Origin: Leptolyngbya sp. BL-A-14
Lineage (GTDB): Bacteria; Cyanobacteriota; Cyanobacteriia; Leptolyngbyales; Leptolyngbyaceae
Direction: 5' to 3'
Assembly: GCA_041937185.1 (NCBI GenBank)
Contig: CP166621.1
Location: 2,260,571-2,324,570 of the forward strand
Length of the DNA: 64,000 nt
Position numbers and translations under genes: made by a program. The notes below the pieces were generated by a model. The model searched no databases and had not been told where the DNA came from. It worked only from the letters and a program-made list of their open reading frames with translations. Positions 2,019 to 51,480 of the stretch are shown in pieces (position 1 is the first letter of the stretch; the number at the start of each line of letters is the position of its first letter).

Positions 2019-3302
2019 CTAATTCTGATTCCGTGTCTGCCTTGCCAGTTCTAATAGCTGCCCCCAGCGTTTTTGCAGTTGTTTGGGTGTCCACTTCAAT
2101 TGCCGGACAATGTCTTGATCCGTTGTCTGTGCCTGCTTTAGCGAGAGCAATTGTTGCTGTTCGGGAGAGAGTTGGCTGAGAAAGCGTTGCCAGTGTTGGG
2201 TTGATAGCCCCAGGTTTTGATCAACATCGGCACCTAGCCACTGGTGAACGAGCTTCCAGTTTTGGGATAAGGTAAATTTCTCGACGTGGTATTTAAAGCG
2301 TTGTTGCAGGTAGTCACGTTCGCGAGCCGACAACCCCAGCACATCATCAATTTCAGGTGCAGACAGATCTTGTAGCTTGAGGGTCAGGTAGTTGACGCAA
2401 TCGGTTTGACCCTGTGCTTCGAGATATTGAATGAGTTCAGCAATGACCCGATCGCGCAACACAGCTTCTGAAGGTGTATCGATCGCGTCGGCTACCATGC
2501 GTTCGCGCAACTGATGAGCTAGGGGAGAGCGATTGCTGGCCTCGGCTTCTTCGCCTTTTGGTGACTCTAACGCCTGCTCAATGTCGATCGCCACTTCCAG
2601 TGGTTGTCGTTGCCCAAACCGCTGGGCACGCAGCACAACTAATTGTTGGCTATGTCCATTGGGCAAAGAAATGCGACGCTTGGCGTACTGTTCGGTAAAC
2701 GCCATGTATTCAGCTAGCTCTAACCGTGTGCGAGGCTGATAATCTTCTGGTTGTTCGTTTTCGCGTCGAAAAGCCTTTAACGACTCGGTATAGAAGCCCT
2801 GGAGAAAATCTTCGACCAGGCTGTAGCGCGCTTGAAAGCCGAGCTGCATACGGCTAGGGGCGATGTGACGGTAAACCATGGAACCTAGCGTGCTGTGCAG
2901 TTCCACTCGTCCCCGGCGAGAGCCAAGCTGGTAATAGTTCAGGCACTTTTGCAATCGATGACGCGCAAGGGAGAGTTGCCACGATCGCACTCGTCCAGAC
3001 GTTTGAATCCGTCCGCTTTTGTGACAGATGCGATCAACTTCAGTGGCAATCCGACTGGCAAGCCGCTCAATGTTATCGCTTTGTGTACTGACTTCAGCAC
3101 GGAGTTCTCGTATCAGGATTTGTGTCAGTGCTGAGATATCCAAAAAATCAGCTGTGTTCTTGGCAGTGGTCAGCATAGGGTCATGATTGAGGCCATCCTG
3201 AAGGTCAGAATGCTGCTCAGTAGTAGCAGCAACGGCATCTGTGGGGGCTACGTTTGCCGAGGCTGCCGCTGGGGGGCGGGGAGAAGTTGAGTCGAAGTTC
3301 AT
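2019..3302 (-). CDS. Hypothetical DNA-binding protein with C-terminal HTH segments resembling sigma-70 region 4; possibly a HetZ-like cyanobacterial regulator (unverified)
   Basis: 427-aa ORF. The C-terminal LSAPEIDDVLGLSARERDYLQQRFKYHVEK and LSPEQQQLLSLKQAQ...IVRQLKWTPKQLQKRW segments resemble sigma-70 region-4 HTH motifs. No sigma region 2 was recognised. Confidence 0.35.
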   Translation of the reverse strand: MNFDSTSPRPPAAASANVAPTDAVAATTEQHSDLQDGLNHDPMLTTAKNTADFLDISALTQILIRELRAEVSTQSDNIERLASRIATEVDRICHKSGRIQTSGRVRSWQLSLARHRLQKCLNYYQLGSRRGRVELHSTLGSMVYRHIAPSRMQLGFQARYSLVEDFLQGFYTESLKAFRRENEQPEDYQPRTRLELAEYMAFTEQYAKRRISLPNGHSQQLVVLRAQRFGQRQPLEVAIDIEQALESPKGEEAEASNRSPLAHQLRERMVADAIDTPSEAVLRDRVIAELIQYLEAQGQTDCVNYLTLKLQDLSAPEIDDVLGLSARERDYLQQRFKYHVEKFTLSQNWKLVHQWLGADVDQNLGLSTQHWQRFLSQLSPEQQQLLSLKQAQTTDQDIVRQLKWTPKQLQKRWGQLLELARQTRNQN

Positions 3303-3348: not shown

Positions 3349-3432
3349 AAAGTTTTGAGTTTTGAGCAGCGCTAGCCTCCGAAGGAGGCACTTTGTAAAT
3401 GCGCCGACAAGCTAGAGAGTTTTGAGTTGATC
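3349..3432 (+). repeat. Dispersed ~70-bp element, copy A (core ...CTAGCCTCCGAAGGAGGCACTTTGTAAATGCGCCGACAAGCTAGAGAG...), flanked by GAGTTTT heptamers
   Basis: Matches copies at 20627..20780 and 40731..40800 (reverse orientation). The hairpin CCTCC-GAA-GGAGG here corresponds to GCTCC-GAA-GGAGC in the other copies, a compensatory change. Confidence 0.7.
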
Positions 3433-3701
3433 AATACTCAAGCCTTAAAATTCATCCCTTCTCATTCAGCACTTCCATCTACACATAGAAAATGAGCCGC
3501 TACGGGTCGGGTCGGGTTAGGATATGTCACTTTCTCAGGTGGTTAACCAAAGGCGTGGATCTTGTCCTGCAAGTAACGTGCCATTGACCGTTCCTGATTT
3601 AGCCTACACCCAACGGTGGGTATTGGTTAGTCTGCTGTGATCGTCCACTTAAAAACCTCATCATCGCCCAGTGCCCTCAGTGGACAGTTCAACCCATTGG
3701 T

Positions 3702-4364
3702 TTAAACTGACTCCACTGCCCATGCCGCTGCTGCTTCCCATCCTAGACCACGCCGAACGATGATCGGTTCCTCAGTCGTCAGATCCAAAATGGTTGACAC
3801 TTGATAGCCAGGTTCAGTGTCGCTATCGATGATGACATCAACCAGTTTCTCCAAACTGTCAAACAGTTCAAAGCGCGAGATCTCGGAGGCTGCTTTGGCA
3901 TTACCGTTCGGTAAATCGTCCAGCAAGTGAGCGGAGGTCGAAATAATGGGATTACCCAAGGCATTCGTTAACGCGAGGCAAAGCGTATGGTCAGGCACTC
4001 GAATCCCTGTTGCTTTACGTTTGGGATTCATGACCAATTTAGGCACCAGCTTGGTTGTTGGTAACAGAAATGTATAGGGGCCTGGAATCAACCGTCGCAT
4101 AATACGATAGGCCGAATCACTCACGACGGCATACTGGGCAATGTCAGAAAGCGATGGGCAAAGAAAGGTCAGAGGCTTGTCATTAGAAAGCTGCTTGATC
4201 TGCCGCACCCGTTGGATGGCGCTCTTAGAATTGAGATCACAGCCGATCGCGTAAACCGTATCGGTTGGATAAAGCATGACAGCTCCATCCCGCAGAGCCG
4301 CGACAATTTGGTCGAGACTTCGCGTTTGTGGATTATCAGGATGCAGTGTAAACAGGGTAGACAT
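3702..4364 (-). CDS. tsaC: L-threonylcarbamoyladenylate synthase, YrdC/Sua5 family
   Basis: 220 aa with a YrdC-domain pattern (LYPTDTVYAIGCD, IQRVRQIKQL..KPLTFL, GIRVPDH, ISTSAHL). Confidence 0.85.
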   Translation of the reverse strand: MSTLFTLHPDNPQTRSLDQIVAALRDGAVMLYPTDTVYAIGCDLNSKSAIQRVRQIKQLSNDKPLTFLCPSLSDIAQYAVVSDSAYRIMRRLIPGPYTFLLPTTKLVPKLVMNPKRKATGIRVPDHTLCLALTNALGNPIISTSAHLLDDLPNGNAKAASEISRFELFDSLEKLVDVIIDSDTEPGYQVSTILDLTTEEPIIVRRGLGWEAAAAWAVESV

Positions 4365-4394
4365 GGAGGGGATGAGGGATGGGGAAGGGGGGAT

Positions 4395-4500
4395 AAAAGA
4401 TAAAGGCTGAAGGATAAAGGCTGACTTCTGGCTTCTGGCTTCTGGCTTCTGACTTCTGACTTCTGGCTGCTAACTTCTGAATGACTAACCACTGACTTCT
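4395..4500. repeat. STRR-like heptamer array (CTTCTGG/CTTCTGA units), intergenic
   Basis: Visible tandem 7-mers: gcttctggcttctggcttctgacttctgacttctgg... Confidence 0.85.
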
Positions 4501-4506
4501 GAATCA

Positions 4507-6087
4507 ATGACTAAAATTGCCTATTTGGACTGTCCGACGGGTATTGCAGGCGATATGTGCCTGGGGGCGCTGGTGGATGCAGGCGTCCCACTGGAGTATT
4601 TGATCGACAAACTTAGCCAGCTTGGCATTGATCACGAGTACCAGCTATGGGCAGAGCGGGTGCTTCGTAATGGTCAGCAAGCGACAAAAGTGCATGTGGA
4701 TTTACTCTTAGATACAGCAGCAGATGCCGTGATACGCAATGAAACTGACGCGATCGCCAATCCTAAACCAGCGCATCACGTCAGTCATCACCCCTCCCAT
4801 TCTGCTACAGAAGCGGTTGTGACGACAGAAACTGGTAAACCCCAGACGGATTCATCTAGCCATACCCATCGTCACAGCCATAGCCACACGCATGACCATA
4901 GCCACACTGACGCACCTACTCACCATACGCATCATGCATTGGTGCGTCACCTTCCTGAAGTAGAGCGCTTGATTTTTAACGCCAAGTTGCCGACACGAGC
5001 CGAAACCTGGAGTTTAGCCGTCTTTCGCAAACTGGCAGAGGCAGAAGGTGCTATTCATGGTGTGCCGCCGGAACAGGTTCATTTTCATGAAGTGGGGGCT
5101 ACCGATGCGATCGTCGACATCGTAGGCACCTGCCTGGGGTTAGATTGGCTGGGCATCGATCGCCTCTACTGTTCGCCTTTACCGGTAGGCGGTGGCACCG
5201 TGCGGGCGGCCCATGGACGCCTGCCTGTCCCTGCGCCAGCCGTGCTGAAGCTGTTTGAGCTACGCCAGATACCTATCTACAGCAATGGCATCGATCGCGA
5301 AATGGTTACTCCAACAGGAGCCGCACTGGCTACAACGTTAGCGACTCAGTTTAGCGCACCACCACCCATGACCTTGCTTCGTGTTGGCTTAGGGGCTGGG
5401 TCAATGAATCTGTCATTGCCAAACATATTGCGGCTGTGGGTCGGGGAGATGGGCAGAGGGCAGGAGGCAGAAGGCAGGAGGCAGAAGTTGCAGGGGGAGC
5501 AGGGGCAGCGAGGGGAGCAGAGAACCACTGTCCCCCATCCCCCATCCCCCATCCCCCATCCCCCAAACTCCATCCTCCACACCCCATCTCCCCACTCCCC
5601 ACTCCCCACTCCCCACTCCCTCCAACCGATCGCCCTACTGGAAACCCAAATCGACGACCTCAACCCACAGGCGATCGGCTACGTGTATGAGGCGCTCTTT
5701 GCAGTGGGTGCGTTGGATGTGTTTACACAGGCGATCGGGATGAAGAAATCACGGCCGGGAATGTTGCTGTCGGTGGTGTGTCACCCAAAGGATATGTCTG
5801 CTTGCGAAGCGGTGTTGTTTCGGGAGACGACCACACTGGGAATTCGGCGATCAATGCAGGAACGCAGCATCTTGCAACGTGAAATGCAGTCGGTGCAGAC
5901 GCCTTATGGGACGGTGCAGGTGAAGGTGGCATGGCTCGATCACAGTCAACCGCAGCCAACAAATGTGCAGCCTGAGTATGAAGACTGTGCGCGTATTGCC
6001 AGAGAGCATGATTTGCCCTGGCGATCGGTGCATCAACTGGCGTTACAGGCATGGCACGAAAGCGATGCTGCCAGGAGCCACGCCTAG
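4507..6087 (+). CDS. larC: Nickel-pincer cofactor biosynthesis protein LarC (DUF111), with a His-rich insert and an in-frame heptamer-repeat-derived insert
   Basis: The N-terminus [28 protein letters not shown] matches the LarC/DUF111 signature. It carries a His-rich stretch ([10 protein letters not shown]...[18 protein letters not shown]...HHTHH). At 526 aa it is longer than typical LarC (~400-420 aa). Confidence 0.85.
5436..5640 (+). repeat. STRR heptamer arrays (GGCAGRR, CCCCCAT x4, CCCCACT x4) embedded in-frame within the larC coding sequence
   Basis: The sequence ggcagagggcaggaggcagaaggcagg...cccccatcccccatcccccatcccccatccc...ccccactccccactccccactccccactccc lies inside the larC ORF. It translates as [12 protein letters not shown]...[29 protein letters not shown]. 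Antisense ORFs 5346..5663, 5351..5602 and 5413..5625 are repeat artefacts. Confidence 0.85.
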
Positions 6088-6844: not shown

Positions 6845-6895
6845 ATCGCAAAAGGCAGGAGGCAGAGGGCAGAAGGCAGAAGGCAAAACCCAATC
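6845..6895. repeat. STRR-like GGCAGAR heptamer array
   Basis: ggcaggaggcagagggcagaaggcagaaggc. Confidence 0.8.
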
Positions 6896-6992
6896 AATCA
6901 GAGCTTTAATCGGGACGGTGTGTCCTAGCTAATCTATGTTCGGCTAGAAGCTAATCTATGTTCGGCTAGAAGTAGTTGACAGAAGACGATCG

Positions 6993-12491: not shown

Positions 12492-14894
12492 ATGTCTGCT
12501 CCGATCGCTGCCCCATTCTCTCCAGAAGAAATTGCCTCGGAAGGCATTAAGCCAGAGGAATACGAAGAAATCGTGCGTCGTCTGGGTCGCCATCCCAACA
12601 AAGCTGAATTAGGCATGTTTGGGGTGATGTGGTCAGAGCACTGCTGCTACAAAAATTCGCGTCCGTTGCTCAAGCAGTTTCCCACCGAGGGCGATCGTAT
12701 TCTTGTTGGCCCCGGTGAGAATGCTGGGGTTGTGGATCTGGGCAATGGGCTCCATCTGGCCTTCAAAATCGAATCGCATAACCATCCTTCAGCCGTTGAA
12801 CCCTTCCAGGGTGCGGCTACGGGCGTCGGTGGCATTCTGCGCGACATTTTTACGATGGGAGCCCGTCCGATCGCCCTGCTTAACTCCCTCCGCTTCGGTT
12901 CGCTAGAAGATGCCCGTACGCGTCGCCTCTTCAATGGCGTGGTGTCTGGGATTGCGCACTACGGTAATTGTGTTGGCGTTCCGACTGTTGGCGGCGAAAT
13001 CTACTTCGATCGCGCCTACTCCGACAATCCGTTAGTGAATGTGATGGCATTGGGCTTGATGGAAACGCCCGAAATCGTCGTATCGGGTGCGAAAGGCATT
13101 GGGAATCCCGTGCTTTACGTCGGTTCTACAACGGGACGCGATGGGATGGGTGGTGCCAGCTTTGCCAGTGCCGAATTGAGCGACGAATCGATGGACGATC
13201 GTCCCGCTGTACAGGTTGGCGATCCCTTCCTCGAAAAATCCCTTATCGAAGCGTGCCTGGAAGCCTTCAAAACTGGAGCGGTGGTTGCGGCTCAAGATAT
13301 GGGCGCGGCGGGCATTACCTGTTCCACCTCCGAAATGGCTGCAAAGGGTGGTGTGGGCATTGAATTTGATCTGGATTTGATTCCGGTACGCGAAACAGGC
13401 ATGGTGCCTTATGAGTACCTGCTTTCAGAATCGCAAGAGCGGATGCTGTTTGTCGCACACAAGGGGCGTGAACAGGAACTGATTGACATCTTCGAGCGGT
13501 GGGGATTGCATGCAGTCGTCGCAGGCACCGTCATTGAGGAGCCGATCGTGCGCATTCTCTTTAAGGGCGACATTGCCGCCGAAGTGCCCGCAACAGCCCT
13601 ATCTGACAACACGCCAATCTATCATCGTGAGCTCTTAGCAGAACCACCTGCCTATGCGCGAGAAGCTTGGGCATGGACTCCCGATCGCCTCCCTTCCTGC
13701 ACGGTTGAAGGCATTGAGATTCAAGGGACGCATCACACCTGGAATGATATCCTGCTGAAACTATTAGCAAGCCCGACGATCGCCTCTAAGCGCTGGGTGT
13801 ATCGCCAATACGACCATCAGGTACAAAACAATACCGTGATGCTGCCCGGTGGCGCGGATGCTGCGATCGTCCGTGTGCGTCCTGTAGGGGTGCAAGGGGA
13901 ACCGCAGAGACGCGGAGACGCGGAGATGCCTTCATCTTTTCAAACAGGGGTCGCGGCTACGGTTGATTGCAATCCCCGTTATGTTTATCTACATCCGTAT
14001 GAAGGGGCAAAGGCGGCGGTGGCAGAGGCGGCGCGTAACTTAAGCTGTGTGGGGGCTGAACCGCTGGCTGTAACGGATAATTTGAATTTTGGCAGTCCCG
14101 AAAAGCCGATCGGCTACTGGCAGCTTGCCGAAGCGTGTCGCGGTATTGCCGAAGCCTGTAAGGAATTCAACACGCCCGTTACAGGTGGCAACGTCTCGCT
14201 CTATAACGAAACGCTGGATGTGAATGGCAAACCCCAACCTATCTATCCCACGCCTGTCGTCGGCATGGTTGGCTTGATTCCCGACCTGACCAAAATCGCC
14301 GGTCAAGGCTGGCAGTCCGAAGGTGATTTGATCTATCTGCTTGGAGTGCCTGTAGAAAGCCTTAACCTCAGTGCCTCCCCACTCCCCACTCCCCACTCCC
14401 CACTCCCCACTCTCGGCGGCTCCGAATACCTGGCAGTCATCCACAACACGATCGCCGGTATCCCTCCCATTATCGATTTCGATCGGGAACGACGCGTCCA
14501 GTCTGTCTGCCGTGAGGGCATTCGGCGAGGGTGGCTTCGGTCGGCGCACGACTGTGCAGAGGGTGGTTTAGCAGTAGCGTTAGCAGAATCGTGCTTGAGC
14601 GGGCAACATGGGGCAGCGATCGCCCTACCCGCTTCAACCACACGCCTGGATCATCTCTTGTTTGCGGAAGGTGGCGCACGAATTATTGTCTCGATCGCAG
14701 CAGCCAATCAAGCGATTTGGGAATCTTACTTACAACAGCACCTTGCTAACAATTGGCAAGCCATTGGAATCGTCACGCAGAAACACACGGCACTGTCGAT
14801 CGCGCTTGCAGGGGGGCAACCTGTCATTAACGTCGACTGGGCAACATTGGGCGATCGCTGGCACAACGCCATTGAACGCCTCCTCACCCAGTAG
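12492..14894 (+). CDS. purL: Phosphoribosylformylglycinamidine synthase subunit PurL
   Basis: 800 aa with the full-length PurL pattern ([46 protein letters not shown]-terminal AIR-synthase-like domains). It contains two short in-frame heptamer-repeat inserts. Confidence 0.95.
13893..13930 (+). repeat. Heptamer repeat (GAGACGC units) in-frame inside purL
   Basis: cagagacgcggagacgcggagatgc encodes [11 protein letters not shown] within purL. Confidence 0.7.
14375..14412 (+). repeat. CCCCACT x4 heptamer array in-frame inside purL
   Basis: ccccactccccactccccactccccactc encodes [12 protein letters not shown] immediately before the conserved LGGSEYL segment of PurL. Confidence 0.8.
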
Positions 14895-16785: not shown

Positions 16786-16930
16786 AGTTTTGAGTTTTGA
16801 GTTGAGCAATCAGCGATCAGCAGTCAGCCTTTTAGCCTTTAGCCTTCTCCTGCCCACTCCCCACTCCCGACTCCCCACTCCCTCATTTCAAAGCCTTTTA
16901 GCCTTTAGCCTTTTCCTGCCTCCTGCCCTC
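16786..16930. repeat. Mixed STRR heptamer arrays (GAGTTTT, TAGCCTT, CCCCACT), intergenic
   Basis: gttttgagttttgag...agccttttagcctttagcctt...cccactccccactcccgactccccactccc... Confidence 0.8.
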
Positions 16931-51274: not shown

Positions 51275-51480
51275 GACAAGCAGAAGGCAGAGGGCAGAAG
51301 GCAGGGGGCAGAGGGCAGAAGGCAGGGGGCAGAAGGCAGAGGGCAGGGGAAGCAGGGGGAGCAAGGGCTGAAAAGGACAGGAGATAAGAGACGGGGGACA
51401 GGAGTTAGAAGTTGAGAGTCAGGAGTCAGAAGCCAGAATTAACTCAGAACTCAAAACTCAAAACTCAAAACTTAAAACTC
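51275..51480. repeat. Largest STRR array in the window: ~10 GGCAGRR units, then GTCAGRA units, then ACTCAAA x4
   Basis: gcagaaggcagagggcagaaggcagggggcagagggcagaaggcagggggcagaaggcagagggcag...gagtcaggagtcagaagccag...actcaaaactcaaaactcaaaacttaaaactc. Confidence 0.9.

Follow-up and report, generated by a model that had tools for sequence, protein, structure and literature searches.

How can tandem repeats with a unit of seven nucleotides, a length that is not a multiple of three, persist inside a protein-coding gene? The question is raised by a 64,000-nucleotide stretch of the genome of the cyanobacterium Leptolyngbya sp. BL-A-14 (GenBank assembly GCA_041937185.1, contig CP166621.1, positions 2,260,571 to 2,324,570; hereafter the window), where heptanucleotide arrays resembling the STRR (short tandemly repeated repetitive) sequences of filamentous cyanobacteria lie at 5436-5640 within the open reading frame (ORF) of larC, the gene for a nickel-pincer cofactor biosynthesis protein. 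Our analysis found that the arrays form the linker between the two domains of LarC, and we consider it likely that they reflect slippage-driven turnover of STRR sequences in the flexible linker of a functional enzyme, filtered by reading frame, stop codons and solubility.

Analysis of this region with Tandem Repeats Finder (TRF) revealed four arrays, all of them within the single larC ORF on the plus strand (Table 1), in agreement with the original prediction of in-frame heptamer arrays in this gene. Direct reading of the units gave five of GGCAGRR, five of CCCCCAT, a degenerate stretch and four perfect units of CCCCACT. The TRF row with TCCCCCA as its unit spans 5531-5600 (period 7, 9.7 copies, 79% matches) and its end is overlapped by the row with CCACTCC (5577-5620, 6.1 copies). 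The composite of the arrays is 171 nt long (5452-5622) and divisible by three, whereas the arrays taken one by one are not. The supposition that such arrays keep the frame only in multiples of three units does not hold, since the arrays have five, five and four units and it is the total length that keeps the frame. The gain in low-complexity residues, put at about 60 by the original prediction, was found to be about 50-60.

Table 1. Features of the larC locus and of the purL gene in the window, with positions counted from the first letter of the window.
Feature	Positions	Strand	Basis
larC ORF (526 aa), encoding LarC, a CTP-dependent nickel insertase of nickel-pincer cofactor biosynthesis	4507-6087	+	ORF list, profiles, structures
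His-rich low-complexity segment, aa 85-146	4759-4944	+	absent from 12bi alignment; AlphaFold2 pLDDT <50
LarC1 catalytic core, aa 147-313, ending in beta-strand ...LRLWVG	4945-5445	+	NCBIfam, alignment
LarC1-LarC2 interdomain linker, aa 314-375, ~62 aa	5446-5631	+	12bi alignment, AlphaFold2
Array 1, GGCAGRR x5	5452-5487	+	TRF period 7, GGCAGAA, 5.1 copies
9-mer array, GCAGGGGGA x3.4	5490-5520	+	TRF
Array 2, CCCCCAT x5 at 5531-5565, then degenerate units	5531-5589	+	TRF, codon reading
Array 3, CCCCACT, four perfect units at 5590-5617	5590-5620	+	TRF
LarC2 (CTP-binding, hexamer-core) domain, aa 373-526	5623-6084	+	NCBIfam, PDB 6bwo, pLDDT mostly >85
purL ORF	12492-14894	+	

The heptamer arrays of larC are confirmed as real and far beyond chance, because period-7 arrays are in large excess over shuffled sequence and the same unit families occur in the non-coding DNA of the window. 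TRF found 24 period-7 arrays in the whole window, nine of them with a score of at least 50; 20 dinucleotide-preserving shuffles of the window gave a mean of 0.75 period-7 arrays and none with such a score. Seven is the commonest repeat period in the window by a wide margin. As originally predicted, the larC units belong to the families seen between genes, on the evidence of both TRF and BLAST. Arrays of GGCAGRR were found in non-coding DNA at 6848-6885, 32848-32883 and 51280-51346, and an array of CCCACTC at 16853-16882. BLAST of array 1 gave matches at 6854-6885, 32854-32883 and 51280-51368; the best array-length matches between larC arrays and non-coding arrays are 93-97% identical and the rest 84-90%. 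The junction of GGCAGRR with GCAGGGGRA, the passage from array 1 to the 9-mer array, has a look-alike between genes, in the cluster at 51306-51367 (84% identity over 64 nt, BLAST).

STRR sequences are described as mostly intergenic and as depleted within coding regions, above all on the coding strand (PMC4692102). The larC arrays are head-to-tail arrays of 7-nt units from families dispersed at several loci of the window, as STRR sequences are, but they lie in a translated ORF instead of the usual intergenic location. This location is a departure from the usual description of STRR sequences and no ground to deny that the repeat families are the same. A filamentous cyanobacterial host fits, as the closest relatives of both LarC and PurL are all cyanobacterial (Stenomitos/Leptolyngbyaceae); the window also contains 60 copies of HIP1 (GCGATCGC), and larC has a hetZ-like gene as a neighbour.

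Comparison with protein families and structures identified the host gene as a larC. The protein matches Pfam PF01969 (Ni_insertion) over profile positions 1-375 of 375 (E=1e-144, 482.8 bits), the NCBIfam LarC1 equivalog with 215 bits (cutoff 90) at aa 147-312 and the NCBIfam LarC2 equivalog with 146.8 bits (cutoff 50) at aa 376-495. Structures matched are PDB 12bi (E=3e-89), full-length Moorella thermoacetica LarC as determined by cryo-electron microscopy (cryo-EM), and PDB 6bwo, the crystal structure of Lactiplantibacillus plantarum LarC2 (E=6e-28). Essential residues of M. thermoacetica LarC are H72, H108, H116, H118, H160 and E104 (PMC13510736, in which residues are numbered as in the 12bi chain minus 18). 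Residues H148, E180, H184, H192, H194 and H236 of the window protein align to H72, E104, H108, H116, H118 and H160, respectively. When 48 homologues were aligned, E180, H184, H192, H194 and H236 showed no variation and H148 was at least 90% conserved. On account of the full family match and the conserved catalytic histidines and glutamic acid, the larC of the window looks functional, with its catalytic residues intact. One cyanobacterial LarC, that of Synechocystis, is established as an active nickel insertase (PMC11796402). The exact LarC of the window is not in public protein collections; proteins of Stenomitos-like Leptolyngbyaceae come nearest to it there, at 77-78% identity.

A His-rich insert and a length of 526 aa had been taken as unusual. 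The protein is indeed long compared with the biochemically studied enzymes of about 400 aa, but lengths of 460-550 aa are normal among its close cyanobacterial relatives. The His-rich segment contains a period-6/12 repeat at 4857-4904 (TRF), is predicted to be disordered, with a predicted local distance difference test score (pLDDT) below 50 for aa 87-140 in an AlphaFold2 model, and is an extension of the known nickel-binding histidine region of the LarC family. Its length varies within clusters of 90%-identical proteins (50/54, 67/68/73 and 84/89 aa).

Alignment of LarC orthologues, suggested in the original prediction as a way to delimit the repeat segment, placed it on the linker between LarC1 and LarC2 and not at an arbitrary site. 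M. thermoacetica LarC is a hexamer in which a flexible linker of 13 residues (residues 236-248, which are 254-266 of the 12bi chain) joins peripheral LarC1 trimers to a central LarC2 hexamer (PMC13510736). In our alignment with 12bi, residue 314 of the window protein pairs with chain residue 254 and residue 377 with chain residue 268. The arrays cover aa 316-372, and the whole linker is essentially repeat-encoded, by heptamer arrays and one 9-mer array. The linker is predicted to be disordered: in the AlphaFold2 model, for which 48 homologues were used, most of each domain exceeds a pLDDT of 85, apart from aa 221-270 of LarC1, where it dips to 50-79, and values are 37-53 across aa 321-370, between the strands at 307-315 (LRLWVGEM) and 373-382.

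Repeat-encoded linkers are found well beyond this strain. A hypervariable low-complexity segment between LRLWIGE and LETQIDD was present in all 120 closest homologues (422-551 aa), and in many of them translated heptamers appear as 7-aa periodic motifs (QRSAVSG, KTQNSKL, PHSPLPT, EEGRGKK, FPMPNSQ). For a wider comparison, 80 orthologous larC loci from species-representative cyanobacterial genomes were used; array counts refer to 77 linkers, from 76 of these loci plus the window. The length of the linker across cyanobacterial loci ranges from 18 to 115 aa. Period-7 arrays were detected by TRF in 43 of the 77 linkers and cover at least 30% of the linker in 36; a further count gave 67 linker arrays. 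The units differ by lineage and are specific to it. Units AGAAGGA, AATTCCC and CCAATGC occur in linkers of Microcoleus and Kamptonema, and units AAACTCA, CAACCTT, CTCACTC, GGCAGAA and CCCCACT in those of Leptolyngbya-like genera. Among the 28 loci that also have arrays in their 3-kb flanks, 10 share a unit between the linker and a flank array. Orthologues of Nostoc and Halotia (L039, L042) have no arrays and 24-aa linkers. Rough ORF calls over about 480 kb of flanks gave only three in-ORF arrays outside larC, each beside a putative start codon, and these are probably mis-called starts. Since the flanks hold only these three dubious cases, the LarC linker is an STRR hotspot.

Within this hotspot, sequence and length change faster than in the domains on either side. 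Identity to the seven closest homologues is 85-93% for the LarC1 core and 72-87% for LarC2 but 31-58%, with many gaps, for the linker. The original prediction asked whether array length is polymorphic between strains, and linker lengths do differ among relatives, even within clusters of at least 90% identity (55/52/48, 43/45/38, 86/80/87 and 62/54 aa). Unit AGAAGGA occurs at 7.3, 10.3, 19.1 and 20.4 copies in Microcoleus-type loci L033, L041 and L055 and Kamptonema locus L040. Comparison with the closest relative, a locus from a JGI metagenome (L081), revealed array edges in common with the window and a different interior. The common left edge is GGGGAG.TGG.CAGAGGGCAGGAGGCAGA.GGCAG and the common right edge is (CCCYACT)n CCCTCCAACCGATCGCC, the unit of L081 at the latter being CCCTACT. 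The description of the arrays as inserted in larC holds with a refinement: they do not stem from a single recent insertion, the site being an old one with continuous turnover, common to many genera.

Two further observations concern the linkers of relatives. Several LarC linkers have, within their AAACTCA arrays, a nested palindromic mini-element some 24 nt long, with the sequence CTAGCG.AGCGG.GC..GCGCTAC and the translation SSxAAQSA (L028 4076-4100; L075 1896-1920, minus strand; proteins P0003, P0009, P0011-P0014 and P0017). Its presence differs within one 90%-identity cluster (P0003 versus P0126), and a search for it in the window found none. At 3380-3620 of a contig of JGI metagenome 3300041964 (L162, protein P0164), single-base indels in the linker leave LarC1 and LarC2 in different frames, LarC2 being otherwise intact; this split could be a sequencing error, a pseudogene or a natural split.

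Three properties of the linker arrays point to selection at the level of the protein. The larC gene is intact in one reading frame at 80 of 80 orthologous loci. As 7 leaves a remainder of 1 on division by 3, a 7-aa repeat is the product of three units, each read in a different phase; because all phases are read, an array of at least three units survives in an ORF only if the cyclic unit is free of stop codons on that strand. The consensus unit was stop-free on the sense strand in 64 of the 67 linker arrays, against 62% per strand among 118 arrays elsewhere. When both orientations are stop-free, the one found on the sense strand has the more hydrophilic product for 37 of 40 arrays (binomial p=2e-8) and for 16 of 18 distinct units (p=0.001). 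Intact frames at every locus, stop-free units and hydrophilic orientation together indicate purifying selection on frame, stop codons and solubility, with no sign of selection on the sequence itself. Of the selection or chance retention implied by the original prediction, selection for frame is supported by 80 single ORFs at a site that is repeat-rich and polymorphic in length, and the selection extends to stop-free, hydrophilic units.

A second gene of the window, purL, carries a similar array. CTCCCCA is present in-frame at 14375-14412 in 5.4 copies and forms a 15-aa loop insertion relative to the Thermus PurL structure 3viu; 14375-14407 is 100% identical over 33 nt to array 3 of larC (BLAST). 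About 20 of 80 metagenomic purL orthologues contain in-frame period-7 arrays at two loops, one of which varies from 5 to 60 aa. Because surface loops of purL carry similar in-frame arrays, these genomes have a general habit of housing STRR arrays in disordered segments that permit them.

The arrays within LarC linkers also follow an order. Mean purine content is 0.67 in the first half of the linker and 0.47 in the second, with the first half higher in 67 of 77 linkers, and the purine content of arrays declines with their relative position in the linker (Spearman -0.69). Outside larC, 37 composite STRR clusters of at least 70 nt were analysed, of which 11, one of them a frameshifted larC linker, run from purine-rich to pyrimidine-rich and one runs in reverse. 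The order is strand-symmetric and may belong to STRR clusters as DNA and not to LarC in particular. Clusters with this order were seen in the window at 1802-1964, 4365-4480 and 16786-16914, as well as in L003, L005, L014, L081 and others. As an account of the order, a hairpin between the two halves is not supported, and a rule by which G-rich arrays follow stop codons and C-rich arrays precede start codons was tried and rejected, the trend from rough ORF calls being weak (G-C skew +0.07 downstream versus -0.13 upstream).

In many filamentous cyanobacteria the linker site holds different heptamer families, drawn from the STRR repertoire of the genome in question. Under the explanation we favour, slipped-strand mispairing would expand, contract and replace the arrays, and other STRR loci would probably recombine with them. 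Linkers whose total length is not a multiple of three, whose unit has a stop codon in one phase or another, or whose peptide is hydrophobic would be removed by purifying selection that acts on LarC as a two-domain enzyme; the phase of an array would be irrelevant and only stop-free units would persist. Extra length would be tolerated, and probably near-neutral, since the linker would do no more than tie the LarC1 trimers to the hexamer core formed by LarC2. The same process, acting on other permissive surface segments, would account for the array in the purL loop.

Several points weigh against this explanation. Near-neutrality of linker length is something we infer, and in M. thermoacetica LarC deletion, shortening or rigidifying of the linker, or its replacement by (GGGGS)2, each left less than 10% activity (PMC13510736); by analogy, linker composition can matter for LarC activity. 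Slippage and protein-level filtering leave the order from purine-rich to pyrimidine-rich unexplained, and the explanation does not say how identical heptamer families reach many loci. The locus counts, including those of the orientation tests, are not phylogenetically independent. There is no public copy of the exact protein, and the array copy numbers are known from this assembly alone.

If linker length were adaptive, the long tether, first charged and then proline-rich, would be positively selected, with STRR slippage as the means of tuning its length; it would help or control the LarC1 trimers as they move round the LarC2 core, or the hand-off to a cyanobacterial client that binds the nickel-pincer nucleotide. 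Length, flexibility and composition all matter in the M. thermoacetica linker (PMC13510736), cyanobacterial linkers (18-115 aa) are nearly always longer than its 13 aa, a charged N-terminal side with a C-terminal side rich in proline, serine and threonine recurs across orders, and LarA is missing from most cyanobacteria, so that another client is needed (PMC11796402). Set against these points are the wide variation of length and sequence even within 90% clusters, with no conserved motif, the array-free 24-aa linkers of Nostoc and Halotia, the like arrays in purL loops, which have no tether role, and the occurrence of the purine-to-pyrimidine order in non-coding STRR clusters too. The variability of the linker and the purL parallel argue for tolerance rather than tuning, and we regard adaptive tuning as unlikely. 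The architecture shared with non-coding STRR clusters is the ground for a different idea, that the LarC1-LarC2 junction of filamentous cyanobacteria behaves as, or descends from, an intergenic-type spacer, either as the fossil of a fusion of once separate larC1 and larC2 genes through a spacer with STRR arrays or with arrays that set the ratio of LarC1-only to full-length protein by slippage or frameshifting. We offer it as a speculation of low probability; if true, control of that ratio would have a counterpart in Lactiplantibacillus, where this junction is the site of a programmed frameshift. A contingency locus in the strict sense, in which gain or loss of one heptamer shifts the frame and yields LarC1 without LarC2, is very improbable. 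In its favour, the unit is not a multiple of three, the boundary of LarC1 and LarC2 is precisely where the arrays lie, a programmed ribosomal frameshift links larC1 to larC2 in L. plantarum (cited in PMC13510736), and contig L162 has the two parts in different frames; but none of the 80 genome loci is out of frame, the window has a single continuous ORF, the L162 shifts are single-base indels, possibly sequencing errors, and not unit changes, the arrays are short (four to five clean units), and LarC2 is required for CTP-dependent activity.

The remaining alternatives concern the DNA or RNA itself. Pairing of the 5' half, which is G-rich, with the C-rich 3' half could give an mRNA hairpin, or the template strand could form a G-quadruplex, with pausing of ribosomes or polymerase between the parts for the two domains as the result. 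The minimum free energy over 205 nt is -79.8 kcal/mol, the region contains an 11-nt perfect inverted repeat (GGGGAGATGGG/CCCATCTCCCC), weak matches to miRNA-precursor-like Rfam families reflect its hairpin propensity, and the minus strand of 5531-5620 reads (ATGGGGG)5 and (AGTGGGG)4, which by motif type only match the Nostoc heptamers of the canonical G-quadruplex type that fold in vitro (PMC4692102). The predicted fold is nevertheless no better than that of dinucleotide shuffles (z = -0.72; 53 of 200 are as stable or more so), most lineages have unrelated units in the two halves (AGAAGGA versus AATTCCC, for example), no Rfam family was matched at its gathering threshold and many orthologues are array-free, which leaves a structural role highly doubtful. 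A search for an internal promoter or terminator in the larC arrays found none, terminator-like matches being at 5798 or further downstream. The original prediction allowed for an assembly artefact. Mis-assembled repeat reads would then have been put into larC, and the presence of the same families elsewhere in the window and the lack of an independent public copy of the exact sequence would fit this. Each array is, however, at most 70 nt long and below read length, the frame is intact, the flanks are colinear with orthologues, the array edges agree with those of L081 at every base, and arrays occupy the same site in complete chromosomes of relatives (L003 from CP120836, L028 from CP170648); an assembly or sequencing artefact is very unlikely for the larC arrays of this strain, although their exact copy numbers may be less certain. 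Equally unlikely is a single insertion of a discrete mobile element that carried the arrays, whether of the miniature inverted-repeat transposable element (MITE) or the small-dispersed-repeat type. In its favour, the 64-nt GGCAGRR/9-mer junction has its 84% counterpart in an intergenic cluster, and the mini-element nested in AAACTCA arrays of relatives is polymorphic for presence. Against it, BLAST of 5436-5640 against the 64-kb window gave matches array by array and no second copy of the 205 nt, no terminal inverted repeats or target duplication were found beyond repeat-internal matches, and the orthologues form a graded mosaic and not an empty versus a filled site; the mini-element, besides, does not occur in the window.

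Turnover of STRR arrays in a permissive linker, the reading preferred here, can be set beside known systems. STRR sequences were reportedly first described by Mazel et al. in 1990. The larC arrays resemble the STRR sequences of filamentous cyanobacteria in their head-to-tail 7-nt units, copy numbers from a few to about 20, dispersed families and variable copy number, and differ in being translated and in forming a whole protein linker. As the nearest precedent, Vioque is said to have found STRR arrays in 1997 in the RNase P RNA gene of heterocyst-forming cyanobacteria; the site of these arrays is a dispensable helix. Both cases involve a permissive, strain-variable site in a conserved functional gene whose function is kept, but RNase P RNA has no frame constraint, whereas larC is subject to filters of frame, stop codons and solubility and yields a peptide with a 7-aa period. 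Elhai et al. reportedly described, in 2008, small dispersed repeats that sit within the heptamer arrays of Nostoc, and the ~24-nt palindrome in the AAACTCA arrays of relatives is reminiscent of them, no more than that, the linker of the window being without such an element. For Nostoc PCC 7120, an analysis of its G-rich heptamers was published by Rehm et al. in 2015 (PMC4692102).

Among LarC proteins, the linker of M. thermoacetica has the same position and is likewise a flexible, non-conserved tether from LarC1 trimer to LarC2 hexamer core; it consists of 13 ordinary residues and is sensitive to length and composition, whereas that of the window has about 62 repeat-encoded residues and those of cyanobacteria 18-115. 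L. plantarum also has an unusual genetic feature exactly at the LarC1/LarC2 junction, but there larC1 and larC2 are two ORFs in different frames joined by frameshifting, while the window and the 80 orthologues have one continuous ORF. Simple-sequence contingency loci share with larC a unit within an ORF that is not a multiple of three and a copy number that differs among relatives. They differ in that no out-of-frame alleles by unit change were found among the 80 orthologous loci, and in that the larC arrays lie in the middle of a gene for a housekeeping cofactor enzyme instead of close to the 5' end of a gene with a surface or restriction function. The literature searched, which did not take in key older papers, gave no description of translated STRR sequences as protein linkers or of a LarC linker hotspot.

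Other features of the window were noted beside these results. A dispersed element of about 95 nt is present in two copies (6848-6940 and 32848-32935; column identity 79%), each with a GGCAGRR array at its start followed by shared non-repeat sequence, ...ATCASAGC.TT.ATCG.GAC.G.GT.TCCTA.CTAA.CT; it matched no Rfam family. Just 3' of the array at 6848-6885, a perfect 22-nt direct repeat (AGCTAATCTATGTTCGGCTAGA, 2.1 copies) was identified by TRF at 6927-6972. A hetZ-like gene (2019-3302, minus strand), a sua5/yciO-like gene (3702-4364, minus strand) and larC occur in an order that is kept in L081 and L162, the closest relatives. The divergent promoter region at 4365-4506 is also full of STRR arrays, of GGGGAT-type, AAGGCTG and CTGACTT units.

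STRR heptamers, usually seen as intergenic clutter, can supply whole disordered linkers or loops of conserved enzymes, and the filter is simple: total length modulo three, stop-free units and hydrophilic orientation. For annotation, this means that repeat-rich segments in cyanobacterial genes need not indicate misassembly or pseudogenes, and the LarC linker, as a fast-evolving in-gene marker, could be used to type closely related strains. Cyanobacterial LarC proteins further provide a natural series of linkers of 18-115 residues at a tether found to be critical and composition-sensitive in a 2026 cryo-EM study (PMC13510736), which makes the proposed model of LarC conformational cycling directly testable. 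The main value of the locus lies in a clean example of repeat-driven linker evolution, together with a linker-length series for the study of the LarC mechanism.

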